A stretch of DNA of 58,515 nt from a virus (lineage: Duplodnaviria > Caudoviricetes): positions 1-58,515 of the IMG/VR virus record IMGVR_UViG_3300026105_000002. One strand, written 5' to 3'. Numbering within the stretch: position 1 is the stretch's first letter; every line of letters begins with the position of its first letter. Below, piece after piece: positions 4,703 to 58,515 of the stretch. A program made the position numbers and the translations under genes. The notes below the pieces were generated by a model. That model worked only from the letters and a program-made list of their open reading frames with translations, made no database searches and was not told the origin of the DNA.

Positions 4703-4720
4703 TGTTCTCCTTTTGTCATT

Positions 4721-9504: not shown

Positions 9505-9505
9505 A

Positions 9506-37126: not shown

Positions 37127-37144
37127 TGTACCTCCTAGGCCAGT

Positions 37145-42171: not shown

Positions 42172-42236
42172 TTAAATATCTTTCTGCGCAGGATAAAACA
42201 GCACTATTATTTTATCACATTGGATTTTTGGTAGTT

Positions 42237-42614
42237 TTAATTTATAATTCGACGGCCGTATTCGTCAAATTCATTATTAACGAGCCCCATTTCTTCAAGA
42301 GTAGGTGCTTCCCCGTCTACAACAATCCTATCAGACGAAAAAGTGTTAAATACGAAAAAAACCGCGGCGTTTATGTTCTCCAGATTGGGGTTAGTGGGGA
42401 TAGAAGGCCCTTCAGGAGTGATGCTGTACTCTTCTCCAAACTCGATTTCGCGAGAAATAGCGTTTTGTTGGACACTAAACAACGCCAACTCAGAAGAAAA
42501 AGAGTTTTCTTTTGCCTTTAATCCTTCTTTTGGGTCCCAAATGAGCTCTGATTGAACATCGACATCGGGGTTTTCTGGACTAATTATGAATGTTACTGGC
42601 TTTGTATATTCCAT
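42237..42614 (-). CDS. Acidic hypothetical protein, candidate immunity partner
   Basis: Start overlaps the stop of the HExxH protein (TAATG at 42614). Confidence 0.6.
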   Translation of the reverse strand: MEYTKPVTFIISPENPDVDVQSELIWDPKEGLKAKENSFSSELALFSVQQNAISREIEFGEEYSITPEGPSIPTNPNLENINAAVFFVFNTFSSDRIVVDGEAPTLEEMGLVNNEFDEYGRRIIN

Positions 42615-45600
42615 TATCTACCGCTTCCTAACATTAATCCTAGCGCAAAACCCACAACGTCTTCATCGTATTTGCCTGTTTCATAGTCTAAACCTATATA
42701 TTTAGGATTACTAAAGACTCCTTGCATCAATGTAGTTGACACTTCTGAATTTATGTCAGAAAACAACACAAAATCTGAATATGTTTTTTGTGTATAGCTT
42801 TCTGGTGTTTCATTCTTAAAGTTTATAAATCTCTCATTTGAACCGTATAAGCTTGTGCTTGATGCGCGAGGAAATTCGGTGTCATCACCAATTGCTCGAT
42901 CAAACGCCCAGGCATGCTCAAGGGCAGAAATGTCGGCATTATTAGTTTGAGCAGCATGCCATAGCTCGTGTATGCCCACATCAAAAATAGACGGCGACTC
43001 ACCGTTCAAAGATTTAGTGTTTAATACGGTGTAGTGACCTCCTGGGCTGTAGTGGCCTCTTGTATTGCCTACGCCAACTCTTAAAGGGATGTCTCTAGAA
43101 AAGACGGACTCAATTACATTTTTTGGAATGAAAGACAAAATTTCGTTAAATTGCTCTTCATATTTTCTTTGCACGGCACGCTCATTTGCAGCATCTCTAT
43201 TTTTAGCTTTTCTCGGCCCCGTAAATACTAACTTTCCATCGTCAACTAGTTGCTTTGCTGTAAAACCACCAAACTCAACTCCGCTGTTTTGTAGCTCTTC
43301 TTTGATTAAATTTTTTCTCAGAGTTTGTAGTTCTCGAAGAGAAGCATTTTTTTCTTCTCTAAGCTCCCTCAAGGTTTCTCTCTCCGCATTTACAGTGTCG
43401 GCATATTTTTTAGTTGCTTCTTTAAAATTAGCGTACACCTCCCCTAATTCCGAATAACCTTCAAAATTTCCAGATTCGAATTCTCTATTTAACTTCCTTG
43501 CTTCTGCAACATCTTCAATTGAGTTTAAAACTTCCGCTTTTTTATCGCTATAGGCATCAAGAGCCACGCCTCGATCTTTTATTGCTTCAAACTGAAGTTC
43601 ATCAAATTCTTTTTTTGCTTCTACTTCTCTACCTGCAATGTTGTTGTGCTGAGAAATTTTTTGAACGTATTCCTCGTTAGAAAAAACTCTTTGAGCGACT
43701 TGCGAACCTTCTTCAGTAAGTTCGTTTTTTAAGTCTCTAGCTTGAGGAGTTGGCTTCAAGGCAGCTTTTTCAGAACGAGAACCTGACTCTGTTTTAATAA
43801 AGTTTTCAGTCTCTGTCACACCAGAAGAAACTATGCTTATATATTCTTCTGACTGTCCTGGCGATTTTCCTACAAATTTGTTAGCTAAAGAACTATTACT
43901 GACGCTTACGGCTCCTGACTGTACTCCCGATCGAGTAGTAGTCTCGGGAGAAGTTTCGCTTCCGCCGCGTCCGCCTAGTGGAGGTAGGTCATCTGGCTCA
44001 GAGCCGTCTGGTCCTGGATTTTCGCTCGGCCCGTCTTCACCTTCGTCAGGGTCAAAAATATCTTTGTAAACCGCGAGGTCAATGTTGTATCGCTCGGCCC
44101 TGCGTTCTACTAGATCTTCACCCTCTACCCTGCCCGTATAGTTGGTTAGAGGAGTATCGTCATCAGTTGGCTCCATGTATTTAGTAGCAAGAATATTTAC
44201 TTCGGTTCCATCTTCAAAACGAACTCGAACGGTGTCGTGATAGTCATTAGGCCCTGAGTTAGGGTTCAGTGCGCTAACAATACCAACAGACTCATCGCCT
44301 TCGTTGTTTGTGTAACGAACACGCATTCCCGGAGTAATACGGGTGTTCCCGTCTTTAGCGGAGTATGGGATTCTGCCTAAGTTGTTTATATCAAAACGAC
44401 CGTTTTTAATTGCTCTTTCAAGATTATTAGCAAGCGTAGCTCGTCTTTGACCTTCCCCTGTACCATTATACCTGTCTGAAGTCTGACTTCTAAGGATTTT
44501 AATCATTTCGGCGCGCGCTGCTTGGTTGTCCGGAAGCCTTCCTAAAACAGAAATTAGCCTCTGAGTAAAAGCATCACTATCATCCGCATTTACCGCATCC
44601 CAAAAAGAAGGAATTTCATCTTGCAACTGCGTGAGTAGCGGGAGGCCGGTCTCAGGATTAGTAGAGATGTTTAGCTTTTGAGCCCTTCCCTCTAGATACT
44701 TAGTAATTAATTCTTCCTGAGTGAGAAGCTTCATGTTTGGGTTGTTTAAGTCAGCGTTGTTGGCTCTTCCGCGAAAAAACTTAATTCTATCTTGAAGAGT
44801 CTTATCATCTCCAAAATACCGAGCTGTTTGAGTAGTCATTGAGCCTGGTATGGCACGACCTAAGAGTTGATCACGGAAAACTACTATACCGTTAGTCTTA
44901 CCGTGGAGCGATGCATAAGAATCTTTGTAATCGTAGTGGTAGAATTCTTGCTTTTCACCCGTTTCAGAATTCGTAAACGTGTACCGCTCCAAGAACCCGT
45001 TACCGTATGTCTTGGCAACAGCAATTTCATAATCATACTCTGTGCCATCATTGTCCGTAAATTTTTTACGCTCAACGATAATCTCGCCGCGGTCGTTGAT
45101 TTTTGCTTCGGGGTAGTCTTCAAGAAGTTGTTGAATTATCGCGTCAGGGTTCGTAATTGTTTTATATTTAGGTCTGCCCTTTTTATCTTCGCCTACCTGA
45201 ATCCTAAGGGCTTTCCCGGTTTCTGGGTCAATTAAAGGTTTTACTTTAGTTTTATTTAACTCTTCACGAGTTTTAGTGGAGGGGTTGATCTCTCCGCCAT
45301 CATCTTCTCTACCTTCTTCTCGAGCTCTAGCAAGAAAAGTTTCTTGTGTAGCACGCTCTGGGTAGGGCTCTCTAGTGCGTCGACTTTTTCGACGAGGTGG
45401 CTTAGGCGTGGGGGTAGGTTCTGGATCGGGAGTAGGCTCTGGAGTAGGCTCTGGCGTTGGCGGCTCGGGCTCACCCTTCCTTCCCTGAATAACATCCATT
45501 TCCTGAGATTGACGAACATTAAAACGTCTTTCTTGCCCATTACTGTCTGTAATGTCAACGTCAAAAGTTTTTAATCCATCTTTGTCAGGACCAGGTGTGA

Positions 45601-46726
45601 CAGACTTAACGACTGCCTCTTCCCCGGAAGGGAGTTTAAGAATATCATTTTCTTCTAGTTCAGGCGGAAATTTAATGGCGGTGGTTTCTTCAGGCTCTTG
45701 CAGGAAGTCATCAACATCTTTAGTTGGACCACCATAAAGTATTGCTTCTTCTACATAAGCATCAACAGGGTCTTTGTCTAGATTAATTTCGCCAGACTCT
45801 TCTACTGACTTCTCATTTAATTCTTCTTTAATGCTTGCTTTTGCTGCCTCTATGCGATCGGCCTCTGCTTGATCAAACATCAAACTAGAAATTTCTTTTT
45901 TTGTGAATCCTAGATCTTCAGCTTCTTGAGAAGTAAGTTTTCTGCCAAGAGCTGCCTCTACTTTTCTTCTATTTCTGTCGCGTTGATTCTCCATTGCTTG
46001 CTCTGTTGGAGAAGGCCCGCCATCTATAAGCTGCCTGGTATTTTGAGCATCAAATAAGGCTTTACTACCTGCCTCATCAAGTTTGTTTGGGTCATCAATT
46101 AAATCAGTTACATCTGTTTTTTCGGGGTCAAACTCGTCTGGGTCAATTCCAGACTCACGAAGCATTTCACGAGCTTCGTCTTGGTTAAGCGACTCGAAGC
46201 CGCCAGGAAGTTCTGCAAGTGGTGACTCTTCTCTACCTGCCTGCTCTGCTTCTTGCTCTTCTTCGGTCAACTCACCGCGAGCAAGACGCTCGTCGTTTTC
46301 AGTGATGTCTTGACGAGTAGCTTTAAATTCTTCTAGTGAAGGAAGGTCTGCATCAGATATTGAGCGCTGATTACCAAAGTCGTCCTCATATTCAAGGTCA
46401 AGACCACGTTCTTCAAGAAATTCCTCTGGTAGTTTTGCTTTAAAAGTGTCTAAGTTGTGCGACTGAACAGTGTATACACCATCTTCTACACCAGATTCGT
46501 CTCTAACCAAGACTCGTGCCTCGCCTGGTCGTCCTGTAGGACCAACATAACGTCCAGCAATAGATTTGAGGTCGCCTTTTAGGTTTCGAAACATTGACTT
46601 AACAGCGGCCCCCATGATAATCCAACGACCCCTTCTGTCACGAGGCTGGATTCTCCAAAAGCCCTTGTTGGCTCCGTCGTTTACTCCAATAAATGCAACA
46701 AGAGCTTTCAAGTCGTCAGAGTTCAT
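42614..46726 (-). CDS. Large head-region protein: shared N-terminal domain, SH3-like modules and a C-terminal HExxH metallopeptidase-like domain
   Basis: GANKGFWRIQPRDRRGRW; PEPTP linker; RGHY...IHELWH...EH...YTQKTY...SEVST. Confidence 0.7.
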   Translation of the reverse strand: MNSDDLKALVAFIGVNDGANKGFWRIQPRDRRGRWIIMGAAVKSMFRNLKGDLKSIAGRYVGPTGRPGEARVLVRDESGVEDGVYTVQSHNLDTFKAKLPEEFLEERGLDLEYEDDFGNQRSISDADLPSLEEFKATRQDITENDERLARGELTEEEQEAEQAGREESPLAELPGGFESLNQDEAREMLRESGIDPDEFDPEKTDVTDLIDDPNKLDEAGSKALFDAQNTRQLIDGGPSPTEQAMENQRDRNRRKVEAALGRKLTSQEAEDLGFTKKEISSLMFDQAEADRIEAAKASIKEELNEKSVEESGEINLDKDPVDAYVEEAILYGGPTKDVDDFLQEPEETTAIKFPPELEENDILKLPSGEEAVVKSVTPGPDKDGLKTFDVDITDSNGQERRFNVRQSQEMDVIQGRKGEPEPPTPEPTPEPTPDPEPTPTPKPPRRKSRRTREPYPERATQETFLARAREEGREDDGGEINPSTKTREELNKTKVKPLIDPETGKALRIQVGEDKKGRPKYKTITNPDAIIQQLLEDYPEAKINDRGEIIVERKKFTDNDGTEYDYEIAVAKTYGNGFLERYTFTNSETGEKQEFYHYDYKDSYASLHGKTNGIVVFRDQLLGRAIPGSMTTQTARYFGDDKTLQDRIKFFRGRANNADLNNPNMKLLTQEELITKYLEGRAQKLNISTNPETGLPLLTQLQDEIPSFWDAVNADDSDAFTQRLISVLGRLPDNQAARAEMIKILRSQTSDRYNGTGEGQRRATLANNLERAIKNGRFDINNLGRIPYSAKDGNTRITPGMRVRYTNNEGDESVGIVSALNPNSGPNDYHDTVRVRFEDGTEVNILATKYMEPTDDDTPLTNYTGRVEGEDLVERRAERYNIDLAVYKDIFDPDEGEDGPSENPGPDGSEPDDLPPLGGRGGSETSPETTTRSGVQSGAVSVSNSSLANKFVGKSPGQSEEYISIVSSGVTETENFIKTESGSRSEKAALKPTPQARDLKNELTEEGSQVAQRVFSNEEYVQKISQHNNIAGREVEAKKEFDELQFEAIKDRGVALDAYSDKKAEVLNSIEDVAEARKLNREFESGNFEGYSELGEVYANFKEATKKYADTVNAERETLRELREEKNASLRELQTLRKNLIKEELQNSGVEFGGFTAKQLVDDGKLVFTGPRKAKNRDAANERAVQRKYEEQFNEILSFIPKNVIESVFSRDIPLRVGVGNTRGHYSPGGHYTVLNTKSLNGESPSIFDVGIHELWHAAQTNNADISALEHAWAFDRAIGDDTEFPRASSTSLYGSNERFINFKNETPESYTQKTYSDFVLFSDINSEVSTTLMQGVFSNPKYIGLDYETGKYDEDVVGFALGLMLGSGR

Positions 46727-46731
46727 TAGTA

Positions 46732-46740
46732 ATTATATCC
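46732..46740 (-). promoter_or_regulatory. Putative -10 element giving a leaderless mRNA
   Basis: GGA-TATAAT 5 nt upstream of ATG 46726; a second GGG-TAAAAT at 46765-46773. Confidence 0.5.
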
Positions 46741-46782
46741 TTACGCGTAAATAGGACTACCTAAATTTTACCCTAAGGCTAT

Positions 46783-47283
46783 TTAGTCGAGTTTGGAAAG
46801 TATTTCTGTGGCAAAAGACGCAACGAAAGGTTTTAGATTTCCATTAGCTAAAACTGTTTGCAATCTAACTGTTGCATGTAGTTTTTGGTATTGATCTCCA
46901 CCGGGAGTTAAGGCAGCTGTTATAACTTCCTTAGCGGAGTCTTCGATTGATGAATCTCCTAGCAACCAATCTACAGACTCTTCCGTGTCAAAACCACTAA
47001 AGTGAGGATGACCAGCAGGTAGTAGCTGACTATATCTTGGGTAAAACTCAGCAGACGCATTTACTCCTTGAGTCGAGTACTCTAAAAAGCCGTGGAGATC
47101 CCACTCCAAAGCATTAGCAACGTCTTCTTCATGCTCAAGATAGGAGTATGTATCAACTGCAGATGCTAAAACGGCTTTTAAAGTTTCTAGGTTAACTTTT
47201 CTAGATTCCGCAACTTTAGAATTAAATTTGTCTGCAACTTCTTCGACATGCTCTATGGCAAGGTAGTCTTCCCAGTTACTCAT
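46783..47283 (-). CDS. Hypothetical protein
   Basis: Likely start MSNWEDYL at 47283, overlapping the upstream stop; QLLPAGHP echoes DLLPSAH in the upstream protein. Confidence 0.65.
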   Translation of the reverse strand: MSNWEDYLAIEHVEEVADKFNSKVAESRKVNLETLKAVLASAVDTYSYLEHEEDVANALEWDLHGFLEYSTQGVNASAEFYPRYSQLLPAGHPHFSGFDTEESVDWLLGDSSIEDSAKEVITAALTPGGDQYQKLHATVRLQTVLANGNLKPFVASFATEILSKLD

Positions 47284-49198
47284 CTTCTCTCTCTTTCGGA
47301 AGTAGGTCAGCATCAGGACTTTCATACAAAGCGGCAGCTAGAAGTGCAGCCCTGTTGAACGGGTCCTCATTATTGGCCAGTCCTCGTAGCCAAGCTGCCC
47401 TAAAGCTAGGAAGGGCTTCGTAGCCTAAGCCAGCAAACTCAGTTATTGAAAAAATAGCATGCTCGTCAGAAGCATATTCTTTTCTCGAAAGCAGTCTTAC
47501 CTCTAGTTGGTCCTCTAGATACGCACTAGCGGCAATAGAATTGCTCTTCTTTGTAGAACGCTTATGGGCCGAAGGAAGCAGGTCGTTATCTTGAACATAC
47601 TTCTTGTTCTTCGGGTTTCCGTTTCGCAGTAAATATAGGAAAGCGTTTACTCTAGCCATTGACCACGAGTTTCTGTTTTGGTCTGGACGATGTGAAGTTG
47701 AGAAAGCGCCAGCACCACGACGGTAAACAGCTTTTAGAGTGCGAAGATTTGTTTTCTTGCTCTTTGCATCTCCGTGCTTTTCGTTGTGCTCTTCTACCTT
47801 ATTCTCTAAAGCCTTAGTTACTCTTTTAGAAAAGTTAATCTTTTTACCGCCCGAAGCAGAACCTTTTTTATTCTTCTTAGAGCCCTTACGGCGCTCGCTA
47901 GGTTCAGCTGGCTTGGAGCCTGCTGTTGCAGTTACGGTTTCGTCAGTTACGGGTCCGCCAGCTGCCCATGCGTTACAAGTTCTTTCAGACGCGCACTTGA
48001 AATCAAGAGCGTTGCAGTATCCAACTTCTCCAGCCGCGATTGAACCTTCTGCACCTTCACCGTCTGTTCCAATGCCTTCTTCAATACAATTTAGCATTTC
48101 GGTAGTGCGAACAAAGAATATGCAATTTCCGCAGACAGCAGTTTTTGCTTCTTCTGGTTCAATGTCCCATCGGTCAGCTTTGTCTTCCCAGAACTCCTCG
48201 TTTGGTTCGGCTGGGTTTAGCGGTCCGTACCCCACGTTGTCAATCGCGTTTTGACGGTTTTTTAGGTTTAATTCAACATCTTGAGTTGCGGGTGGACAGT
48301 TTTCTGCAGCGGCTGCAGTAATAACTGGGCCTCGGTAAACTCTTGCCTCTATGCCCTCCATGCCGTCCATAAGACGAACCGCACAACGGTGATGACCGTC
48401 AACAAGCTTTTTGCCTTCTGAATCAATATAGACAATTACTGGCTTGTTGTACTTTTTTGTGTCTTTAAAGTTTTCTGTCTTAACAACTTCTTGAGTCGGA
48501 ATAAGGTCTTTTATTTCAAGATAGGTTTCTTGATACTCGCCCTTCATTTCCTTAATTTTCTCTTTTAGCTCATATTGCTCAAGTTTAGGAGATTTCTCAA
48601 AAAGCTCTTTTACGGGTTTTTCGCCTTTATCTTGTTCTACTACTCCATCTGGGATAACAGCCAATCTGCAAAGTCCGCCTTCTTCGGTAGTTGCCTCTAC
48701 AATCTTGCAACCGTTAGGAGCGTCCCAAAAAATGCAACTTCCGCACTTAACGCCAAAATCTTTGTTATCGTTTTCTGCAGCAGGAGTGTAGCCAGCCCAA
48801 ACGCCCGTGTCATCAGCATTGAACTTGCCATGCTTTTTAGTTATTTTAAGTAGAGCTTTAGCAAACTCTTGCTCTTCAGGAATTAGATATCCTGCAGCTA
48901 CCAAAGCTTCTTTTGATTCTTGTTGATTCTTTTCTGTAATATGTGAAGATGCTTCGTTGGCTGGTACGCAGTTGGGGACCTCTTTGCCGTCTTTCATCTT
49001 CATACCAATTTGAACATATCCGTCCCAACAGGGGTTATCTGATGCAGCTTCGTTGTCGTGAGCGTCGTCACGCATAAGAGTTCCGTCAGGCATATAGTGG
49101 TAGCCTTCAGGAGCTTCTTTTTCGCCTGCTTTTAGATTCTCAGCAGGGGCAGCATGGCCACCAGAAGCTTTAATAATTTTTTCTACGTAGTCAGACAT
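47276..49198 (-). CDS. Multimodule head-region protein (CWxGY motif, HiPIP-like Cys cluster, ParB/Srx-like domain, Cys-rich domain, basic C-terminal domain)
   Basis: PCWDGYVQIG..VPNCVP; KCGSCIFW..GCKIV..GLCR; LIPTQ...VDGHHR; CPPATQD...CGNC...FKCASERTCNAW; KAVYRRGAGAFSTSHRP. Confidence 0.65.
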   Translation of the reverse strand: MSDYVEKIIKASGGHAAPAENLKAGEKEAPEGYHYMPDGTLMRDDAHDNEAASDNPCWDGYVQIGMKMKDGKEVPNCVPANEASSHITEKNQQESKEALVAAGYLIPEEQEFAKALLKITKKHGKFNADDTGVWAGYTPAAENDNKDFGVKCGSCIFWDAPNGCKIVEATTEEGGLCRLAVIPDGVVEQDKGEKPVKELFEKSPKLEQYELKEKIKEMKGEYQETYLEIKDLIPTQEVVKTENFKDTKKYNKPVIVYIDSEGKKLVDGHHRCAVRLMDGMEGIEARVYRGPVITAAAAENCPPATQDVELNLKNRQNAIDNVGYGPLNPAEPNEEFWEDKADRWDIEPEEAKTAVCGNCIFFVRTTEMLNCIEEGIGTDGEGAEGSIAAGEVGYCNALDFKCASERTCNAWAAGGPVTDETVTATAGSKPAEPSERRKGSKKNKKGSASGGKKINFSKRVTKALENKVEEHNEKHGDAKSKKTNLRTLKAVYRRGAGAFSTSHRPDQNRNSWSMARVNAFLYLLRNGNPKNKKYVQDNDLLPSAHKRSTKKSNSIAASAYLEDQLEVRLLSRKEYASDEHAIFSITEFAGLGYEALPSFRAAWLRGLANNEDPFNRAALLAAALYESPDADLLPKEREDE

Positions 49199-49656
49199 TA
49201 CCTAATCCCCATTGACGCTTTTAGTTGCCAGTTCCATTTGTTGTGCATATCTATTCTACCGCCTACAAAATCAACCAATCCTTGCTCGTTGCATTGATCA
49301 GCTTTTTTAATTAAGGTGTAGTAGCAATCAATGGTTTTTTGGTTAGCTCTTTGTAAAGACTCGATCATAGCCGCAACGCCATTAGAGCCAGTGAGCCTAG
49401 GCTCGTCGATACATGTTAGGTCTGTAAAATCTCCCAGCAGGTAAGGGGAGTCATAGCCTAATTTAAGAATGCTCTCTGCAAGAGGGTCTACAGAAGCATC
49501 AAGGTCTTCATAGATTTCTTCGAAGAAGTCATGGTATTGAGAGAACTCTATTCCCATAACATTCCAGTGATACCCGTGAGCAAGTGATCGTAGTACTACT
49601 ACGTCACCTAATTGATGTGCGGTTTGTTCAGCTAGTTCTTTTGTGTTATCGTGCAT
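49198..49656 (-). CDS. dps: Dps/ferritin-like protein
   Basis: HGYHWNVMG..F..YHDFFEEIYE..DPLAE ferroxidase signature; ends KWNWQL. Confidence 0.88.
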   Translation of the reverse strand: MHDNTKELAEQTAHQLGDVVVLRSLAHGYHWNVMGIEFSQYHDFFEEIYEDLDASVDPLAESILKLGYDSPYLLGDFTDLTCIDEPRLTGSNGVAAMIESLQRANQKTIDCYYTLIKKADQCNEQGLVDFVGGRIDMHNKWNWQLKASMGIR

Positions 49657-51410
49657 TATTCCTCAGGTTCGGCTAGTCCGGGTGGTGCTTGCTGCGGCTC
49701 GGTGGGGGTTGCCTCTCCTCCGCCTCCGGAAGCCTGGTTTAGAAGATCATCAATTTCATCTGGAATTGGAGCGCCTGTAGCTTCTTGAGCTTGCTCTCTG
49801 GCTTGGCCCATAATATTAGGTGCTACAACAGACAGCAATGCCTCTGTCTGTTCAGGTGTTAGCGAGCCCTTTTGAATTAGCAAACGTAAGCTTAGCTCTG
49901 TTGGGTCTGGAGCATCTTGATCCGAGAAGCCGTGAGCGCGACGCCAAGTGTTGTAGCTAACAGCCATCTTTTCGAATCCTGAATCAGCGTCAGTTGCTCG
50001 GTCGTTACGAGTTGCAACCTGGCTTGGGTCATACCAAACGCAAAGTCTTTCAACTTCTTGCTCCGAGTAACCGTTGGCAATTAGGTATGGACGCAGATAC
50101 ATAACTGTAAGCGCATCAACAATCAAAAGCATCAGTGGCTCAATGTGTGCCTTATAAAGGCTCTCGTCGATTTGTAGGGCATTTGAGTACTTAACGTTGG
50201 CAAGACCTGAAACAACGTCTTTAGGGACATCTAGGCCCTGCATAATGCGTTCTAGGACTCTTTCTGAACGCTCAGCTAGCGCAGGGTCAAATGAGCGCTC
50301 AAACTTAAATTGTTTGATTTTGTCACCAAGCTCTCCTGGACCACGAATGATAAGTGGAACAACGGCGCTCGCAGAGTCCTCATCCTTAATCGGAGTGGTC
50401 ATAGCGTCGATTAACTGATCTTCAAAGTCGTCTGCAGCCTCTTCTGGGCTGTACTGCTCGTTGAACTCTCCATCTTCGTCATATGGGTAGTCTGGGTCAG
50501 GCCCTGCTGCAACGGACAGGCCGTCTGGCAAGTAAAGAGCACCAGCGTTCAAACGTGAACGAGCGGTGGCACGGAAGGTGCGGTTCAAAAGCAGTAGCTC
50601 TGCGCAAAGGTCTAGCAAACCACGTAGCGAGGAGTCTGACTCCTGAGTGTAGCGTGGGTGTGCTCGCCAAATACGACCAACAAATGCATCTTTAGGGAGC
50701 CGGATGTTGTCGCTACTACCAACTGACATCTGTGAGGCTCCGCCTGTGCCACCAAAGTCACGGCGAGGAATAATTACGTAATTTCCACGCTGGTCAACTT
50801 GTAATTCGTCAACTGAACGAATATCCCAGCTTTCTGGCAGCCCAGAACCGATACGCTCTGGCACTTGCGCTAGATAGCACTCACCGGTAACCTGCAAGTT
50901 CAAAGCTGCGTCTTTTAGTAGGCCTGGCTGTCCACCATAAGCAGAGCTCAGGCGGTCAAGTGCACGCTCTGCCGCAGCTGCCAATCGAGGGTCAATTGCC
51001 TCAGAATTACGAACAGGGTTAGGCGCTTCAGCTGGGTTATCAACAACTGCAGCGTAAAGACGGATGCGGGACACAACGGATGCAACTAAGTTGAATGCGT
51101 ATTTGATTTCACCAATTGCGTCGTAATATTCCCATGCTTCTGTTTGCCATGCAGTCGACGCTGACTGCCGGCGAGCCTTAAAGTACTCTGCTTCAGTCTT
51201 ATCGTCTAGTTTTACCTGTGCAGCAGCCGCAGTTAGCGGACGCGCTTGATTAAAAGCTGCCGGCTCTGCATAAACAATGCCAAAAGAGTCTATAGACACT
51301 CCAGGAGCGATGCTAGTAGCGTTTTTAGGGGCAGATGCGCGTGGTCCGACCTGCCTACGTTGCTGCTGAGACTCGTTTACTGTCTTCGAATCTTTTTTAA
51401 AAATACCCAA
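49656..51410 (-). CDS. Portal protein
   Basis: WQTEAWEYYDAIGEI, VTGECY, RIWRAHPR, RSRLNAGAL, SAVVPLII, GLDVP; downstream of the terminase. Confidence 0.85.
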   Translation of the reverse strand: MGIFKKDSKTVNESQQQRRQVGPRASAPKNATSIAPGVSIDSFGIVYAEPAAFNQARPLTAAAAQVKLDDKTEAEYFKARRQSASTAWQTEAWEYYDAIGEIKYAFNLVASVVSRIRLYAAVVDNPAEAPNPVRNSEAIDPRLAAAAERALDRLSSAYGGQPGLLKDAALNLQVTGECYLAQVPERIGSGLPESWDIRSVDELQVDQRGNYVIIPRRDFGGTGGASQMSVGSSDNIRLPKDAFVGRIWRAHPRYTQESDSSLRGLLDLCAELLLLNRTFRATARSRLNAGALYLPDGLSVAAGPDPDYPYDEDGEFNEQYSPEEAADDFEDQLIDAMTTPIKDEDSASAVVPLIIRGPGELGDKIKQFKFERSFDPALAERSERVLERIMQGLDVPKDVVSGLANVKYSNALQIDESLYKAHIEPLMLLIVDALTVMYLRPYLIANGYSEQEVERLCVWYDPSQVATRNDRATDADSGFEKMAVSYNTWRRAHGFSDQDAPDPTELSLRLLIQKGSLTPEQTEALLSVVAPNIMGQAREQAQEATGAPIPDEIDDLLNQASGGGGEATPTEPQQAPPGLAEPEE

Positions 51411-51425
51411 GGGGGCTCCCTGTCT

Positions 51426-51716
51426 CTACCGACTGGTTTGGTCGGAAATTAGTCCAATTACTGCAGATATAGACAAAAACAATGATACCATAACAAGCCA
51501 ATCTGGCACTAGGAACCAAAAAACGCTAAAAACAAGCGCAACCCAAAAACCAGAGCACCAGTTACAAGTGAATAAATACCCGAAATAGGTGTCTGGAGGC
51601 CATTTTGCCCAAATTTTGTCTCTTAGCGGCTGAGTGACCACATCAGTCGTAACAAGCAAAGTCACTCTATAGGCCGCTAAGGCCAAAAGTATTAAAGTTA
51701 GGGCATCTGGGGTCAT
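51426..51716 (-). CDS. DUF1360-like membrane protein
   Basis: LAAYRVTLLVTTD...PLR...LFTCNWCSGFWVA, hydrophobic. Confidence 0.75.
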   Translation of the reverse strand: MTPDALTLILLALAAYRVTLLVTTDVVTQPLRDKIWAKWPPDTYFGYLFTCNWCSGFWVALVFSVFWFLVPDWLVMVSLFLSISAVIGLISDQTSR

Positions 51717-51717
51717 T

Positions 51718-52080
51718 TTAGTCCTTCATTGACATAATTGTCTTATATGGGTTCCAACCGCGAAGACGCGATCCGCAGCCGCAACCCGTGTCTTTCTTAA
51801 ATGCTAACATTTTTCCGGATGCAGTCAAAATTCTACTATCTTCGGTCGATTTCTCAGATATGTAGCTTTCGTCGTATTTTTCTTGAAAAACGATTTTTGG
51901 GCCATCAGAGGCATCTTTTGCCACAATTACATGAGTTTCGGTCAAAATTACCCTAGTTATCTCTAAATAGCTTGCTTCCGGGTTCGGCTCGTAACTACGC
52001 AATATTTCAATATCTTCAAAAGTATCGGGCCCGACGGCCGCTAAATGACACGGGAAGCGATCTAGCACTATTTTTGTCAT
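51718..52080 (-). CDS. Hypothetical protein (GCGCGS motif)
   Basis: Coupled to the terminase stop. Confidence 0.65.
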   Translation of the reverse strand: MTKIVLDRFPCHLAAVGPDTFEDIEILRSYEPNPEASYLEITRVILTETHVIVAKDASDGPKIVFQEKYDESYISEKSTEDSRILTASGKMLAFKKDTGCGCGSRLRGWNPYKTIMSMKD

Positions 52081-53498
52081 TATCTGACCCTAAACACCTT
52101 TCCACCACCTCCAGAGGTAATTCCGGGTATTTTTCGATTACCCATGCTTTTTGCACGTAGTTTTCCGCCAGAAAAGCCCGCTGGAGGTTTTATCAGCAAT
52201 GCGGTCATTGCGTGAACCATTGCGTCGATGCGGTCGGGAGATTTTCCTTCTCCAGGAACCCAGGAATACATCTGAGACTCTAAATCTTGTAAATAACCAA
52301 CGTGATGGACCCTGTGTTGCTCGTATGCAAGCACGACTGGCTCTGCTCTTAGTTGTTTTCCTTGTTTCGAGTGAACTTCAAGAACCTTAATTGACGGATC
52401 GATGGAGTTGATCGCACTTCGAACAAGAGCACCGCCCTGATTAACCTCAGCCACAACAGGGCAGCCCCAACGGCGGGCCATTTCGACCACTTTATTCGCC
52501 CATACGTCTGGTGACCCGTGAATTGAAGCATCTTCAAGAACCCACGCATGGCGCTTATAGAGGTCACTCTCGGAAGAAGACGCGCATACCACAATGCCGC
52601 ATTCGTCGCGGGGATTCTCAGCAACCGATGGGTCCACGCCAATGACACGGAGCGGAGTGTGAGCTGGATAGCGAGCCTCTCGACTGGCTTCAACCATTTC
52701 TTCATTCCAGAGCGCTCCTTCCATGTCTTCTAGCATCTCTCCATAAAGTTCCTGGCGAGCTAGAGAGGTGCCTTCATATACTCCAGTAATAGTGTCTAGA
52801 TATGCGCCGGACAAGTTTCCGGCATTGTCCATGGTGGAACCTTTTGTGATAACTACCTTTGAACCACCTTCTTTTTCCAGCTTAGATTCTTCAATAAGCT
52901 TATAAAGGAGAGGCACTCGCTTAGGTGTTGTGGTTACAACCATCTGTGGATTCTTGCCAAGACGGGTTCCAACTCGCAAGTTATCAAACGCGGTCATACC
53001 TGCAGCATCTGGGGTCTGACGCCAAGCTGCGATCTCGTCGCCCCATGCGTGTGTGAATTGTGGACCACGCAAACCGTCAGGTTCGTCAGCGGTAAAAAGA
53101 GAAGCCGTGTTTCCATTAGGCCAAGTGAGACGTCGCTTGGACGGCTCGTAGTGGGGCTTCTCGCTCGGGGGCGAAATGTTAATAATTCCAGACTCGCCTT
53201 CAACAATAACGTCACGAACGTCAGCTGCGGTACGAGCAACGAGTGCGAATCGACGCTGACCAGTGTTTGTGTATTTGGCTTGCTCACGGACCCACTCAGC
53301 GGCGAGGCGAGTCTTGCCGAAACCACGACCTGCCATTACAAGCCAGATGTTCCAATCGACTCCCGCAGGGGCAATTTGCTCTGGACGCCCCCAGATGGAC
53401 CAGTCCCAAAGGAGTTGCTCCTCATCGAGACCTTCTAATGCTTCTGCGCGCTCTTCCTCGGGGAGAAGAGCAAGCTGCTCCATAATACTTTTTCCCAT
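52080..53498 (-). CDS. terL: Terminase large subunit
   Basis: AGRGFGKT Walker A, LRGPQF..AWGDE, TTTP, RQELYGE, VIGVDP, AEVNQGG, SPDRIDA. Confidence 0.95.
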   Translation of the reverse strand: MGKSIMEQLALLPEEERAEALEGLDEEQLLWDWSIWGRPEQIAPAGVDWNIWLVMAGRGFGKTRLAAEWVREQAKYTNTGQRRFALVARTAADVRDVIVEGESGIINISPPSEKPHYEPSKRRLTWPNGNTASLFTADEPDGLRGPQFTHAWGDEIAAWRQTPDAAGMTAFDNLRVGTRLGKNPQMVVTTTPKRVPLLYKLIEESKLEKEGGSKVVITKGSTMDNAGNLSGAYLDTITGVYEGTSLARQELYGEMLEDMEGALWNEEMVEASREARYPAHTPLRVIGVDPSVAENPRDECGIVVCASSSESDLYKRHAWVLEDASIHGSPDVWANKVVEMARRWGCPVVAEVNQGGALVRSAINSIDPSIKVLEVHSKQGKQLRAEPVVLAYEQHRVHHVGYLQDLESQMYSWVPGEGKSPDRIDAMVHAMTALLIKPPAGFSGGKLRAKSMGNRKIPGITSGGGGKVFRVR

Positions 53499-53502
53499 AT
53501 AG

Positions 53503-53592
53503 CTAGGATATCTTCTTATCTGGCTCTGGTTTATCTTCGGACGGTTCTACTTTTTCAAAAGCATCATCTGTAAATCTATCTGCGCTACTCAT
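53503..53592 (-). CDS. 29-aa acidic peptide coupled to the ART gene (not in the ORF track)
   Basis: ATG overlaps the last ART codons (gATGAGTAG); MSSADRFTDDAFEKVEPSEDKPEPDKKIS fills the gap to terL. Confidence 0.5.
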   Translation of the reverse strand: MSSADRFTDDAFEKVEPSEDKPEPDKKIS

Positions 53593-56500
53593 CTTGTCCT
53601 ATCAGTGTTATTTCTACTTTAACGTTTACCATTCTTTCCGAGGGGTCCACAGACTCTACGCTGTCTATCCTAAACCTAGAGTTAGGCGGAAGCAATACTT
53701 CACCTTCTACGCTCCTAGGGACGGCTCCTCCCTTAGAGCCTTTGGGAATATTTATTTCAATCATATATTGCATCCCCGAAAAAGCTGTAACCACCGGGTC
53801 TCCGCTGTTTCTAGTGAATGTAGAAGTTGATAAAAATCCTTTAGATATCCACTCATCACCCGCTTCTCCGAGTGCAGCTTTTTGATATCGAACAACTTTA
53901 ATATCTTCTGGTATTTCAGTTGAATTTACTAACTCTTTTAAATCCTCTACTGCTTTAACGACTTCTTCTTTTTCGAAGTTATTATTTGATAACTCTCCGT
54001 TTCGAAGCCACTTATTTATTGTCGAGTACGGCACACCATAAGAGCCTTGCGTATACCCAAGTAATGCCAGACGTTGGTCCATATTTTGATATTCAAATTC
54101 GGGAACATCGTCTAGGTCCACTTCCCTGTATTCCGTGACTTCAGACACTTCTGGTTTGGATTCTGAAGAAATAGGCTCATCAATGTCAGAGGGGTCAAAG
54201 GTAGAGACGTGCCTAATTTTTACTCTAGTGGGTACGCTAGGATTATCACTCTTAGTTACGGACACTATTTCGTATCTACCTGATGTAACAAACTCTCCAT
54301 AGATAGCTTGCATGTCAAAGGGCATCATTGGTATTGCTTTAGCTCCTGGTTCAAGCTCATACTCGACCGGAAGGCCCCCGCCCTCTACGTCATTTCGTTG
54401 ACCCTGCCAGTATTGCTTAATTTCGTTTTGGTACATCGAAAAAGCAGAAAAAGGTAAGTCTACAGTTGCACCTTCTACGTATTTGTCTACTGTTTCTTTG
54501 TTTGTTCTGATCCCTCTAAAAACCGGAACTTCTGTTTTTGGTGAAGCTTCTACTAGTTCAAGGCCCGCAATTATTTCTTTGTCGGTAATCTTGGAAGGGT
54601 TTATTTTTGCATCCCCGTCTAAAAACTCTTTAAATCTCTCGTTTATGGCTGTAACATATTCAAAGCTGGAGGGCCAGCCTCTTACAAATTCTTCTGCATA
54701 CGAATCTATGTATCCTAATTCTTTTGCTCTTTCATCTTGCTCGTCGTTTACTATTTCTTCTGATTCTTCATCTATTTCATATACAGGTTCCCAGCCGTTT
54801 TCTTTTCCAGACTGAAGAGCACCCTCCAATATTTCCTGTAAAGCAGGAGAACCTTTAGGCTCGTCTACAGAAGTCACTTTTCTAGCATATTTAGATACAG
54901 CAGGTACTTCGTTTAGATCTGTCTCTACTGTCTCTTGTTCAACATCATTTGGGCTTCTAGGGTCCCAACCCAACTCATTTATAGAGTCTCCATCGGTCCA
55001 GAGTTCTTTGGCGGGGACCTGCATCTCGATAACTCTACCTTTGCCAAGCAGATTGCTTTGTAGGTGCTGCTGAGCGTATTTTTGCGATAGCGACACCCAA
55101 TCGCCCTCATTTATTGTGTCTACACCTTCAGGGACCGCTCTATATACCGTAACTGGAGCACCTGGCAATGCTCTTGCTAAAAGTAATGCAGTTGCACTTT
55201 CTTCGTCGGCGGCTTTCATCCCTGTTCCGTAGTTTTTTAGAACTTCTGAAAGCGTGTTCCCAAAGTTAGGCATGTTCTGCTCAATATTTTCTATTTGAAC
55301 GCTGACATCACTAAAAGGACCAGGTGCTTCGTGCGTTCCTGCGTAATCGGAACGTTCAAACGATTTTCCTGCTTTTTGTTGTACTCTTGCTTGGAAAAAA
55401 TAGTTAAAGTTTCCGTTTTCCTCACCAGTTTCTGGGTCAGTCTGCGGAACTTTTTTAATTTCGGTTATTTCTAGCTCTGAATTGCGGGGTAAAAGGACCT
55501 CGCTTTCGGCATCTCCTTGATATCCAGTGCCCTCAGGCATACCCATTGCGGTTGAGCCCTCTGGAACATCAATAGTCCAGAAAAAAGCGGAACTAGTGTG
55601 CTCGTTCATAGCATTATTTGTTGTTTCAGACCCCATTCCAGGTCCAAATTCATTAAAAGCTATAGACGCATCGTTAGAAGTAGATAAAAACTCAGGGAAA
55701 GAGACAACAGCACCTTCCTCTAGGTTTTCTAAAAACTCCATATAAGGAGACCCGGACAGTGGCATGTCCCCACGGAAAACGGTAGAGTCTTCAAAAACTT
55801 CACCATTTTCTTCAATGGCTTCGTCAATAAGGAAAATATAGTCTTTGTTTTCATCAGACGTATCCTCGTTACCGCGCAAGTGCTTGTTTATAAATCTATG
55901 ACCTTGCTGTGCATACCACTTAAGTGCTTGCAGCTGGTCGTCCTCAAAAACTTCCGCATCGTTTGGGTAAATCCTGTTTGGATTACGTCTGCGAAGTAGA
56001 CTAGTGTCGAAGTAGTCACCATCAATAATGTCTTCGTTGTATAGCTCTTCTTTTTGGTCAGAGAGTAGCGTAGCTTGCCTCTCGGACTTTTTCTCATCTA
56101 CATATGTATCATAACTTCTTGTTTTGTGGGTCATAAAGTAATCGCCACTTAGTTCTTGAATCGTAGAAAGCATTTTTAGAGTGTTGTCGAATCTATCGTT
56201 TTTGTACTCGCTGTTTTGTTTTACTCCTTGAAGAGGAGTCAAACTTGGAACATCAAGCCCGTATTTTCCGTCTGGGAGTTCAATAAATAAATTCTTTATG
56301 TTTGCAAAATTTAAAGTATTGCCTGACTCCCTGTACTCGTCATAAGAACCTTCGCCGTGAAGTCTTTCAAACATATCTTTTACGTCAGAAGACTGTAAGT
56401 CGTGCTTTTCTAGAAAGTCGTTTAGGCTATCCCCTAGATAATCGACTTTGTGAAAATCAAATTCGCCAGCCATATCAAAAAATCTGTAAGGTGTTCCACC

Positions 56501-57520
56501 AGCGTTTCTGTTAAACGATTCCCTGCCCCAATCCTTCAGCCAAGAAGCATCAAGATCTAAAATCTCTACATCACCAACTCGTTTTACTCGTCCTTTTTGG
56601 GAAGTAACGCCAGTGCCAACTGTTAGGGCATACTCGTCTTCAATCTTGCTGTAGCCAAGCATTCCGAAAAGTTCTTCAGGTTTTGCTTTAATTTCGTAGC
56701 GGCCGTTGGCTCCTTCATTGCCTCTGGTCGAAGCATAGTCAAAAGCAAAGTTTTTATCCAAGGAAACATATCCAGCCGCGGCATCTTCCTGTGAGCTTTT
56801 ATTATTTACGGAGTTTCTGTAAACCGTTATAAGTCCGTCTGGAGACATATTCAAAATATGCTCGGCGTATGCCCTATTGAGCACCCTCATCTTTTCTGGG
56901 ATTTCATCTAAGTTATTTGGAGACTGTGTAGTTGAGTCAGTTGATTGAGACACAACGTAGTCCCACATGTTTTCGAAGCTGTCAAAGTTTTCCTGAACTT
57001 CTGGAGAAGCATCGTAAACTTTTTTGTAGTCTATTCGAGCACCCTTAGCCATGTCGGTGTCTTCCCCGATTTCTTGGTTAAGACCTATTCTCGGTATAGG
57101 AAATCTTCCTTCTTCCCTAAGAGCACTTGCTACGGACCTAAGTCTGGTTTTTAGTACTTGAGAACCAGAAACGCTTTGTAAAAGAGGTTTATCTTCATTT
57201 AGCGCTTCAGAAGTTTTTTCTTCCATATAACCCTGGGGAATGATGGCCTCTACAGATTCCATTTCTGCTTCTGCAGCATCAACAGAATAAATTCCTTTAG
57301 GGAGAGCTTGATCGGATGTCTCAACTTCAATTTCGGCAAGCCCTAGATTAGTGCTACCAAGATATCTTCCAACAGCTCTACTTGGCATATCAACACCAGG
57401 AAGCTGGTATTTAAATGAAACTAAGTTGCCTTCTTGCACCCAACGGCCGTAGCGGTCACGAATCTGCTTGCGCCAATAACCTTTATTAGCACCAGAATCG
57501 CCTGGAGTGATGTCAACCAT
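53585..57520 (-). CDS. Large protein with a shared N-terminal domain and five tandem ADP-ribosyltransferase-like domains
   Basis: R-S-E triads: VYR/VSL/EDE; VFRG/FLSTS/ESE; VYRA/WVSLS/INE; VFRG/FSAFS/YGE; VVRY/FLSTS/EGE. Confidence 0.8.
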   Translation of the reverse strand: MVDITPGDSGANKGYWRKQIRDRYGRWVQEGNLVSFKYQLPGVDMPSRAVGRYLGSTNLGLAEIEVETSDQALPKGIYSVDAAEAEMESVEAIIPQGYMEEKTSEALNEDKPLLQSVSGSQVLKTRLRSVASALREEGRFPIPRIGLNQEIGEDTDMAKGARIDYKKVYDASPEVQENFDSFENMWDYVVSQSTDSTTQSPNNLDEIPEKMRVLNRAYAEHILNMSPDGLITVYRNSVNNKSSQEDAAAGYVSLDKNFAFDYASTRGNEGANGRYEIKAKPEELFGMLGYSKIEDEYALTVGTGVTSQKGRVKRVGDVEILDLDASWLKDWGRESFNRNAGGTPYRFFDMAGEFDFHKVDYLGDSLNDFLEKHDLQSSDVKDMFERLHGEGSYDEYRESGNTLNFANIKNLFIELPDGKYGLDVPSLTPLQGVKQNSEYKNDRFDNTLKMLSTIQELSGDYFMTHKTRSYDTYVDEKKSERQATLLSDQKEELYNEDIIDGDYFDTSLLRRRNPNRIYPNDAEVFEDDQLQALKWYAQQGHRFINKHLRGNEDTSDENKDYIFLIDEAIEENGEVFEDSTVFRGDMPLSGSPYMEFLENLEEGAVVSFPEFLSTSNDASIAFNEFGPGMGSETTNNAMNEHTSSAFFWTIDVPEGSTAMGMPEGTGYQGDAESEVLLPRNSELEITEIKKVPQTDPETGEENGNFNYFFQARVQQKAGKSFERSDYAGTHEAPGPFSDVSVQIENIEQNMPNFGNTLSEVLKNYGTGMKAADEESATALLLARALPGAPVTVYRAVPEGVDTINEGDWVSLSQKYAQQHLQSNLLGKGRVIEMQVPAKELWTDGDSINELGWDPRSPNDVEQETVETDLNEVPAVSKYARKVTSVDEPKGSPALQEILEGALQSGKENGWEPVYEIDEESEEIVNDEQDERAKELGYIDSYAEEFVRGWPSSFEYVTAINERFKEFLDGDAKINPSKITDKEIIAGLELVEASPKTEVPVFRGIRTNKETVDKYVEGATVDLPFSAFSMYQNEIKQYWQGQRNDVEGGGLPVEYELEPGAKAIPMMPFDMQAIYGEFVTSGRYEIVSVTKSDNPSVPTRVKIRHVSTFDPSDIDEPISSESKPEVSEVTEYREVDLDDVPEFEYQNMDQRLALLGYTQGSYGVPYSTINKWLRNGELSNNNFEKEEVVKAVEDLKELVNSTEIPEDIKVVRYQKAALGEAGDEWISKGFLSTSTFTRNSGDPVVTAFSGMQYMIEINIPKGSKGGAVPRSVEGEVLLPPNSRFRIDSVESVDPSERMVNVKVEITLIGQDE

Positions 57521-57526
57521 GTTTTG

Positions 57527-57534
57527 ATTCTACC
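57527..57534 (-). promoter_or_regulatory. Putative -10 element giving a leaderless ART mRNA
   Basis: GG-TAGAAT 6 nt upstream of ATG 57520; no SD. Confidence 0.55.
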
Positions 57535-57567
57535 TGCTTACGGTTTGAAAAGCTGCTGTTAAACCCT

Positions 57568-57759
57568 TTATGCTTCTGGCTCTATTACGGCTTCGCCTTC
57601 AACGCGTACCTCGAAAGCAGTTTCTCCAGTGTCTGTGATCTTAGACTGATCTTCAGTAGACGCTGTGCCCTCGGTTTGCCTTGCAAAAATTTCCCAGGCT
57701 TCAACAGAACTAGCTGCTTCAACGTCAAAAATAGTTCCAGAAATTATTTTATATCCCAT
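57568..57759 (-). CDS. Small hypothetical protein
   Basis: GG-TATAAT (57766-57773) 6 nt upstream of the ATG. Confidence 0.6.
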   Translation of the reverse strand: MGYKIISGTIFDVEAASSVEAWEIFARQTEGTASTEDQSKITDTGETAFEVRVEGEAVIEPEA

Positions 57760-57786
57760 GCTGAAATTATACCTGGTTATAAGCAG

Positions 57787-57815
57787 TGAGCAGTTTTAAC
57801 ACGTACTCAGGTGTT
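57787..57815 (-). ncRNA. Predicted small H-type pseudoknot RNA element
   Basis: AACAC-CUGAGUAC-GUGUU-AAAAC-UGCUCA: stem 1 AACAC/GUGUU; loop UGAGUA pairs with UGCUCA. Confidence 0.4.
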
Positions 57816-57866
57816 TTGAAGAGTTGCCAGCTGGCATCAGAGACGCTACCGGATCTGCCTTCAAAC

Positions 57867-58512: not shown

Positions 58513-58515
58513 TGA

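Follow-up and report, generated by a model that had tools for sequence, protein, structure and literature searches.

Does a tailed phage mark its giant enzymes for loading into the capsid with a dedicated protein domain? This question is raised by IMGVR_UViG_3300026105_000002, a Caudoviricetes record of IMG/VR that was analysed over its whole length of 58,515 nucleotides (hereafter, the window). Its head-gene block contains two very large open reading frames (ORFs), P0001 (42614..46726, minus strand, 1370 aa) and P0002 (53585..57520, minus strand, 1311 aa). An initial annotation, made from the letters of the DNA, had described them as effectors with a common N-terminal address domain, and both ORFs were recovered exactly as described. 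Phage-delivered effectors decide the first minutes of infection, including host take-over and anti-defence. To our knowledge, the selection of large enzymes for packaging is known in few model phages, where it involves short peptides (T4 and P1) or MuF proteins of the SPP1/Mu type. We analyzed the shared domain (N-domain) and the proteins bearing it (carriers).

Homology and predicted fold of the N-domain

The N-termini of the two proteins align over residues 18-107 of P0001 and 10-102 of P0002 with 34 identities in 94 positions (36%; BLASTP E 2e-11), and the core motifs lie precisely where they had been placed, at 46622-46675 (P0001 residues 18-35, GANKGFWRIQPRDRRGRW) and 57440-57493 (P0002 residues 10-27). 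Beyond this region the proteins have nothing else in common, and the next high-scoring BLASTP segment reached only E 0.09. A hidden Markov model (HMM) of 43 P0001-type homologues, from which P0002 and its relative P0048 were excluded, gave P0002 a score of 53.2 bits (single-sequence E 1.6e-18), compared with a maximum of 6.9 bits for 1000 shuffled versions of the P0002 N-terminus. In the six frames of the window, full copies of the domain were found in these two ORFs only (independent E-values, i-E, of 3.5e-43 and 1.7e-28), and the next-best ORF had a full-sequence E of 0.17. The homology of the two N-termini is real, specific and confined to the N-terminus. No sequence match to the N-domain was found in Pfam, PHROG or PDB, the latter searched with the N-domain profile. 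A PDB sequence search with P0001 also found nothing, and a literature search for the motif returned no paper.

In the alignment of 44 copies, the N-domain spans about 95 aa and consists of the conserved segment GANKGFWRxQxRDxxG(R/Q)W and a variable remainder. R29 is invariant, and G18, A19, N20, G22, W24, Q27, G33, G39, G58 and G62 are conserved in at least 90% of the copies. The AlphaFold2 (AF2) model of the domain had a mean predicted local distance difference test (pLDDT) score of 78.7, with values of 83-94 over residues 21-110. It comprises a short helix (residues 19-25), the RD..GRW turn, a five-stranded small barrel and a short C-terminal helix; the domain is thus predicted to be a conserved segment packed on an SH3/Tudor/KOW-like barrel. 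The best Foldseek match in PDB was the SGF29 Tudor domain (E 0.019). The best VIA match was the PhnA-like structure 2akk (Z 7.6, root mean square deviation 2.5, 69 aligned residues), below this tool's noise mark of 8, as were DSIF KOW (Z 7.3) and PHF19 Tudor (Z 7.2). In BFVD, an unnamed viral protein of 1354 aa was the best match (E 1e-3). The isoelectric points of the 44 copies span 4.6 to 10.4, which ruled out the idea, suggested by the arginines, that the N-domain is a general DNA binder.

Distribution of the N-domain and the enzymes fused to it

A HMMER scan of 1.84 billion cluster representatives with a two-sequence profile revealed 239 representatives with the N-domain at E<=1e-3, including 90 at E<=1e-10. 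A word-indexed search yielded 45 proteins of 880-1506 aa, and a scan of IMG/VR found 57 loci. In a collection of phage GenBank records, the N-terminus of P0001 detected seven Microbacterium phage records only, and the N-terminus of the Zooman carrier added phage DSL-LC01 and, weakly, Arthrobacter phage Atuin. No N-domain was found by a pattern-plus-tblastn search of 185,579 prokaryotic species, bacteria and archaea, represented by one genome each. Given this absence, the N-domain is a phage-only module and not a cellular one.

The domain begins at or before residue 45 in 169 of the 179 proteins with a full hit and at residues 128-320 in the remaining 10. Carriers range from 94 aa (fragments) to 5432 aa in length; 101 of the 179 have at least 1000 aa and 38 at least 2000 aa. 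Pfam domains identified on them were ADPrib_exo_Tox, UvrD helicase, PI3_PI4_kinase (7 of 21 scanned), GNAT, NUDIX, DUF3626, WYL, ArdcN together with MPTase-PolyVal (P0042), and the ADP-ribosyltransferase (ART) family PF01129. Some short proteins (P0097, P0114, P0116) consist of the N-domain and an ART alone. Matches to SprB, invasin and Big_1, in one member each, probably came from the low-scoring multi-stretch proteins P0122, P0157 and P0185 and were taken as false positives of the two-sequence profile.

The N-domain is therefore a mobile N-terminal module joined to many unrelated enzymes (ARTs, helicases, kinases, GNAT, NUDIX and ArdcN/zincin), as had been proposed, and the profile searches recovered it with varied C-termini in a head-gene context. 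The polymorphic-toxin layout of a conserved N-terminus followed by a variable enzyme was borne out as to the variable tail, but not as a two-part layout: since each type of protein has its own conserved core behind the N-domain, the layout is domain, family core and variable tail. By their cores, 138 new cluster representatives were assigned to the P0001 type (P1, 32), the P0002 type (P2, 35) or neither (71).

Genomic context of the carriers

All head and tail genes of the window lie on the minus strand according to PHROG and Pfam annotation. Their order is a helix-turn-helix (HTH) protein gene (58045-58512), P0002, the terminase large subunit gene TerL, two small ORFs (one encoding a DUF1360 protein), the portal gene, a ferritin/Dps-like gene, g640, g180, P0001, g125 with g130, and P3, a protease-scaffold gene. 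The major capsid protein gene (34880-37204) and those of the adaptor, tail tube, tape measure and other proteins follow.

The proposed location of carriers within or next to the terminase-portal-protease block was confirmed by the annotation of the window and by 55 of the 57 IMG/VR loci, in which a head-gene homologue was found; the other two have short flanks only. P1-type carriers were preceded by the portal gene in 37 of 37 loci and followed by the protease-scaffold gene in 27 of 27. The Microbacterium phages Zooman and Pumpernickel and DSL-LC01 all have the order portal, small genes, giant carrier, small gene, giant protease-scaffold, and two carriers are also present in DSL-LC01. All these loci come from one phage clade and are not independent.

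The genes g180 and g640 form one fused protein in many relatives, and the N-terminus of g640 is fused to the carrier in locus L060. In two of the proteins with an internal N-domain (P0107 and P0148), a g180-like segment (residues 25-173) precedes the N-domain at about 180-290. These fusions would tie both genes functionally to the carriers. The N-terminus of g640 is Cys-rich (CWDGY...PNCVP) and matches several PHROGs of unknown function.

Consistent with the initial annotation, no MuF protein was recognisable: Pfam searches found no Phage_Mu_F domain in P0001, P0002, 10 neighbouring head-module proteins and 86 carriers, and no solved MuF structure was among the fold matches of the P1 core. Orf10 of Gordonia phage GMA2, a "putative structural protein" encoded after the portal gene, was considered as proteomic support and rejected since it has neither the N-domain nor the motif.

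The P1-type carrier and its exchangeable cassette

P0001 comprises the N-domain, a conserved acidic linker (about 115-300), a conserved core (about 300-930) and a variable C-terminal module (about 930-1370); P1-type relatives of about 900 aa stop after the core. The best conserved part of P1-type proteins is the N-terminal stretch of about 200 residues, with 47-63% identity versus 24-40% for the core. Such conservation is as expected for a region that would contact conserved structural proteins like the portal (69-80% identical). The AF2 model of the core (pLDDT 82.4) contains a second Tudor/KOW-like barrel at about 786-858 (model residues 327-389; PHF19 Tudor, Z 8.5), and its other fold matches were generic helical ones only, model residues 1-130 being barely tested. 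A BFVD search with the core found no significant match to a named viral protein (best E 3.6e-3, not MuF-named), and the ESM Atlas gave no usable match.

An HExxH peptidase had been proposed for the C-terminal module. The sequence HELWH (H1253-H1257) and a downstream EHAW.[FY]DR motif are conserved in 10 of 10 aligned homologous modules, which upholds the HExxH part of the proposal; this region of P0001, a putative peptidase, has no Pfam match. The top ESM Atlas clusters for the P0001 C-terminus were unnamed (0.93-0.94), and a cluster with PF07737/ATLF in 17% of its members ranked 21st (score 0.92). A related ORF in the same slot of locus L009 matched Peptidase_Mx1 (E 4.7e-6).

At loci with short P1-type carriers, the 2-6 kb before the protease gene are filled by separate ORFs that overlap the carrier stop codon. 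Two of these encode RNase_T domains, one also an ART, and one encodes a Peptidase_Mx1/ATLF-like zincin. For 10 of 15 ORFs of this kind, BLAST-type similarity at E<=1e-8 leads to modules fused behind the N-domain in other phages; the enzyme cassettes thus alternate between fused and split states.

The P2-type carrier

P0002 consists of the N-domain, a family core (about 110-470), ART 1 (about 520-700), a DdrB/ParB-C-like domain (721-856), a further region and ART 2 (about 1150-1311). P2-type proteins generally contain the N-domain and their own core, followed by ARTs and/or a ParB-C-like domain. The ART domains noticed earlier in P0002 were recognised by Pfam in two stretches (PF03496, E 1.1e-31), and PHROG matches included the "Alt-like" phrog_802 (E 2.7e-10), phrog_3895 (E 3.7e-13) and the ParB-C-like phrog_2579. 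The combination R / S-T-S / E-x-E is the hallmark of this ART class. The corresponding residues are R583, S613-S615 and E672/E674 in ART 1 and R1211, S1231-S1233 and E1272/E1274 in ART 2; both therefore look intact and are predicted members of the R-S-E ADP-ribosyltransferase family. A PDB sequence search with P0002 gave weak ART matches only (2gwm, E 5e-4).

P2-type genes immediately precede the terminase gene in the window and in loci L006, L048, L059 and L060, and immediately follow the ferritin gene in L041, L047 and L051. Since only 2 of the 25 loci spanning the HTH-terminase interval have such a gene there, the P0002 type is an accessory gene.

Upstream elements and small partner ORFs

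Near-leaderless -10 elements had been proposed for both carriers, and the proposal held for the P2 type. The window and all four related loci with a P2-type gene before the terminase gene have a TA[CG]AAT-like hexamer that ends 6-8 nt upstream of the ATG. No Shine-Dalgarno sequence was found near the start of these genes, and three of them have only a distant Shine-Dalgarno-like word at -16. Leaderless starts are common in actinobacteria, and the P2-type upstream element fits such a start. For P0001 the proposal failed: TATAAT lies in the spacer behind a conserved AAGGA. P1-type genes have the conserved Shine-Dalgarno sequence AAGGA or GAGGA, and a Shine-Dalgarno-like word was found at -16 to -7 in 35 of 38 distinct upstream regions, most of them P1-type. 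A sigma-70 scan of positions 41500-58515 listed 20 sites versus 20.7 expected; neither proposed -10 element was among them because the scan required a -35 box.

Similarly, a coupled small acidic ORF had been described after each carrier. This was correct for P0001, which is stop-start coupled to g125, and not for P0002, for which no conserved partner ORF was found. The 29-aa ORF behind P0002 was rejected as a real gene because it would not fit into three of the four related loci in which a P2-type gene precedes TerL. When g125 and four ORFs weakly similar to it were combined in an HMM, this family was detected only directly downstream of giant carriers, at L027/L028, L041, L046, L050 and L044. 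The HExxH module was identified by BLAST at all g125-bearing loci but L044; L029, a sixth locus with the module, stops short of showing whether the small ORF follows. Since the g125 family follows carriers of the HExxH module, the small ORF appears to co-vary with the tail, as would a cognate inhibitor, immunity protein or chaperone.

A probable third copy in the protease-scaffold protein

The prohead protease-scaffold fusion P3 has two conserved QPRDxxGK[FY] sites, at residues 364-372 and about 1347-1355. Behind the first site, the sequence is KOW-like (G.RVVVGGD..RG.GTIT.VD.K.G.V.V.LD.GK). An hhalign comparison of the N-domain with P3 residues 350-450 gave a probability of 82.5% (E 9.8e-6, 45 columns), and a plain HMM search of P3 was not significant (i-E 1.6). 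This region is a probable divergent third copy of the module, as judged from profile similarity.

The motif RDxxG[RKQ][FWY] occurs four times in the six-frame ORFs of the window, once in each N-domain and twice in P3, versus 0.09 expected from shuffles, and 73 times versus 1.6 expected in the 57 loci. All occurrences fall into the N-domain, the two conserved P3 positions or the odd locus L061. Microbacterium phages retain the motif both in the carrier N-domain and in the two P3 settings.

The second P3 site, QPRDAKGKYRKVLARLKQDLG (residues about 1347-1364), lies in the helical C-terminal scaffold-like part and is nearly invariant throughout the clade; its form in Microbacterium phages is QPRDYNGQF(K/R)QVLARLKEDLG. 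The P3 homologue is split into two or three consecutive ORFs in L037/L038, L040, L052 and L049, which could reflect true splits, frameshifts or assembly errors. Locus L061 (positions 2-11104 of a high-GC IMG/VR contig) is a 3701-aa polyvalent ORF with tRNA nucleotidyltransferase-like and ParB-C-like domains (PHROG). Between its domains it has 7 copies of [aromatic]xxx(L/Q)HPR(D/N)xxG(R/K)(W/F), six of which read HPRDR(R/K)GR(W/F); three further copies are located in the ORFs downstream, and the motif at this locus lacks the barrel. A scan of IMG/VR for HPRDRRGRW with CGN Arg codons found 7 stretches, of which two were L061 itself; among the other five, one had the motif in an ORF of at least 80 aa, and this lead was dropped.

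Proposed function and alternative explanations

We propose that the head-gene block would encode two giant polyvalent effectors. P0001 would be the constant carrier of the clade, placed between the portal and protease-scaffold genes and provided with an exchangeable C-terminal enzyme cassette, here a putative zincin-like HExxH module with g125 as its cognate small acidic partner. P0002 would be an accessory carrier with its own core, two ARTs and a DdrB/ParB-like domain. The N-domain would serve as the docking module that brings the carriers into the assembling procapsid, its partner being a conserved head-assembly component such as the portal, the scaffold-protease or the inner capsid surface. 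The enzymes would then be carried inside the virion and delivered to the host together with the DNA. A divergent copy of the N-domain in P3, itself built into procapsids, would be in keeping with a shared docking site or with homotypic binding. Involvement in head assembly is suggested by the near-constant N-terminal position of the domain, its higher conservation, its occurrence in phages only, the variety of unrelated enzymes fused to it and the probable P3 copy. The chances that the N-domain is a packaging (docking) module seem to us about even.

Several points weigh against this function. The main open weakness is that in 10 of 15 cases the cassette behind a short carrier is split off and has no N-domain of its own, and hence fusion to it is not obligatory for the role of the enzyme; either the cargo rides the carrier non-covalently or packaging is beside the point. 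The N-domain is not N-terminal in every carrier, as the 10 proteins mentioned above demonstrate. The carriers all belong to one clade, with portals at least 58% identical among those checked, and the synteny may reflect shared descent and not function. The predicted fold is a very common small barrel with matches at or below noise, and the modelled structure says nothing specific. The similarity to P3 is one profile-profile match of moderate probability that the plain HMM did not reproduce. No virion proteome of a carrier phage was found in the literature, DSL-LC01 being a metagenome assembly; for the Microbacterium relatives the search brought up no publication. A complex prediction for the portal and the N-domain (residues 1-115), run without controls, scored 0.00 in both runs and speaks neither for nor against their binding.

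Other explanations of the same data were considered. The P1-type proteins could be structural head-completion or pilot proteins, analogues of SPP1 gp7 or Mu F, whose N-domain binds the portal or the DNA end; the enzymes would then be add-ons and P0002 would have copied the anchor. The gene occupies the usual place of MuF-type minor head genes, directly after the portal block, in all 37 loci, Pfam found no separate MuF in the head module (12 window proteins scanned), and P1-type proteins of the whole clade combine a conserved core with differing tails. We regard this as rather unlikely: the Pfam search of the 86 carriers revealed no similarity to MuF, the best BFVD match of the core model is not to a MuF-named protein, and the explanation overlaps with a docking function and differs only in what counts as primary. 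It is unlikely that the N-domain is a working part of the effectors, active after delivery or in the cytoplasm, that docks the enzymes onto a host machine (RNA polymerase, ribosome or nucleic acid) and is unrelated to head assembly. Its nearest folds are indeed Spt5/NusG KOW, Tudor and PhnA-like barrels (Z 6-7.6), and ART, GNAT and kinase effectors hitting the host transcription apparatus are described for other phages (PMC7824862). However, these structural matches are at noise level, the range of isoelectric points indicates no uniform nucleic-acid-binding character, and helicases, NUDIX proteins, kinases and ARTs would hardly all need a single host docking site. The module also seems to be part of a non-effector, the protease-scaffold protein.

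Two further explanations have a low probability in our opinion. The prohead protease might recognise or cleave QxRDxxGRW; the N-terminus would then be a propeptide that is lost during maturation like the capsid-targeting signal (CTS) of T4, and the P3 sites would serve for autoprocessing. Its presence at two conserved places of P3 and near the N-terminus of both carriers would agree with this, as would the seven repeats between the domains of the L061 protein, where a processing site might be located. Nevertheless, the motif is well ordered in the AF2 model (pLDDT 83-93 for residues 21-40) and not an exposed linker, and processing is compatible with targeting, not opposed to it. We know of no prohead protease specificity resembling QxRDxxGRW. 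Equally improbable is that the carriers are not virion-borne and act as late cytoplasmic enzymes in host shut-off or phage exclusion, with the domain as an oligomerisation or regulatory module. Cassettes can indeed be separate ORFs without the N-domain, a promoter-like element of their own seems to precede P0002-type genes, and no virion proteome in support of packaging was found. Against this, the genes are located strictly between portal and protease on the same strand at every locus. Sizes up to 5432 aa and the domain repertoire also match those of polyvalent proteins predicted to be packaged, and the account of these proteins mentions Alt-like ARTs packaged in T4 (PMC5512222).

A bolder version of the docking function probably goes too far. 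It would make the N-domain a new portable capsid-loading domain common to cargo and P3, so that effectors imitate the docking element of the scaffold, with the core as an adaptor for fused or separate cassettes. The short [QH]xRDxxG[RK][WF] motif, which recurs in unrelated polyvalent proteins, would then represent the smallest epitope needed for docking or processing, within a broader and hitherto unnoticed cargo-loading code of actinobacterial phages.

Relation to known systems

Polyvalent proteins, as described by Iyer, Burroughs, Anand, de Souza and Aravind in 2017, are giant multi-enzyme proteins encoded beside virion genes and predicted to be packaged and injected; the zincin domain is frequent in them and is thought to process them (PMC5512222). 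The carriers resemble them in their giant multidomain build, their location beside portal and terminase genes and their repertoire of ARTs, zincin HExxH, ArdC-N, DdrB-like ParB, helicases, GNAT and NUDIX domains. Several unrelated domains are present in one polypeptide, and the genes are among the head genes of a portal-terminase phage. By analogy, the carriers are probably polyvalent effectors delivered by the virion. Unlike the polyvalent proteins of that account, they have an N-domain that matches no Pfam family, including the LPD families introduced there, and sets apart two paralogous families of carriers in a single phage clade, and there is no MuF or portal fusion. The N-domain takes the architectural place held elsewhere by such fusions. 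Novelty would be limited to the N-terminal module and the carrier families, and an unnamed region of the same kind might already be included in the domain tables of Iyer et al.

The MuF polymorphic toxins of Jamet et al. 2017 (PMC5576092) share with the carriers a conserved head-associated N-terminus, a variable C-terminal enzyme, sometimes a small partner, and a location after the portal gene. Contrary to the toxins as presented there, the carriers have no MuF by Pfam, their tails are mostly not classical toxins, and a partner ORF accompanies only the HExxH module. In addition, those MuF toxins belong to temperate phages, whereas the carriers are not prophage-borne, since they are absent from the cellular genomes searched.

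N-terminal capsid-targeting signals are described for P1 DarB (first 30 residues) and, as the CTS, for T4 internal proteins and Alt, a packaged ART (PMC9024508). The N-terminal placing on large proteins is the same. The P1 and T4 signals, as this source presents them, are peptides of 10-30 residues without a common fold or consensus; the N-domain is instead a predicted folded domain of about 95 aa with an 18-residue invariant segment, a likely copy in P3 and a putative targeting role. The virion RNA polymerase gp50 of phage N4 is also giant, encapsidated and injected, and an HExxH-containing region is needed for its encapsidation (PMC5512222). No homology to gp50 was found, and the N4 determinant is C-terminal while the candidate proposed here is N-terminal.

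If the N-domain is a loading domain, it could be used as a search handle for injected effectors in metagenomes (239 clusters, most with tails lacking a known family) and possibly as a tag for loading foreign proteins into actinobacterial phage capsids. It would also provide a model with one docking element common to cargo and scaffold. If it is not a packaging signal, the finding shrinks to a new domain family in a known protein class.

The phage and other features of the window

CheckV estimated the completeness of the window, the 58.5 kb of which are the whole IMG/VR virus record, at about 34%; it would thus represent about one-third of a tailed phage of Actinomycetia of about 170 kb. The portal protein shares 68.7% identity with its counterpart in Actinomycetia phage DSL-LC01, assembled from a lake metagenome. 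By portal, this phage and Microbacterium phages of 186-195 kb (58-65% identity) are the closest named relatives; identity is about 46% for Arthrobacter phages and about 40% for Gordonia phages. Because these relatives are actinobacterial phages, the host is most likely an actinobacterium. A megablast search of positions 46000-58515 against the phage collection gave no match. The features of the window are listed in Table 1.

Table 1. Coordinates of the carriers, their parts and neighbouring features in the window
Feature	Position	Strand	Evidence or remark
P0001, P1-type carrier, HELWH at 1253-1257	42614..46726	-	BLAST dissection, AF2 core model, alignment
P0001 N-terminal shared domain (residues ~8-110), GANKGFWRIQPRDRRGRW segment and small beta-barrel	46397..46705	-	HMM i-E 3.5e-43; AF2
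P0002, P2-type carrier	53585..57520	-	Pfam, PHROG, BLAST dissection
P0002 N-terminal shared domain (residues ~8-107)	57200..57499	-	BLASTP E 2e-11; 53.2 bits vs P1-type-only HMM
GGTAGAAT, -10-like hexamer ending 6 nt before the P0002 ATG	57526..57533	-	No Shine-Dalgarno; kept in relatives
g125, small acidic ORF, 23 D+E / 8 K+R	42237..42614	-	ATG overlaps P0001 stop (TAATG)
P3, 1508-aa prohead protease-scaffold fusion	37252..41778	-	PHROG and Pfam
Likely divergent third motif-plus-barrel copy in P3, residues ~352-451	40426..40725	-	hhalign, motif scan
g180, acidic protein upstream of P0001	46783..47325	-	BLAST dissection of relatives
g640, head-module protein, DUF5824 and DGHHR ParB-like motif	47276..49198	-	PHROG/Pfam and sequence
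Portal protein	49656..51410	-	phrog_776, E 1.3e-106
Terminase large subunit, TerL	52080..53498	-	PHROG/Pfam annotation

The ferritin/Dps-like gene directly after the portal gene (49198-49656, minus strand; PF00210, E 5e-15) keeps this place in most related loci and is unusual for a head module. The DUF1360 membrane protein (51426-51716, minus strand) has four hydrophobic stretches and is encoded between the terminase and portal genes throughout the clade. The match of the 774-aa major capsid protein (minus strand) to phrog_777 begins only at residue 204; the protein may bear an N-terminal scaffold-like (delta) extension, a further candidate partner of the N-domain. The terminase ORFs of L010 (4382-6835) and L048 (5020-7473) have 818 aa, and their homology to TerL is limited to the C-terminal part of about 370 residues, which suggests an N-terminal extension or an intein-like insertion.

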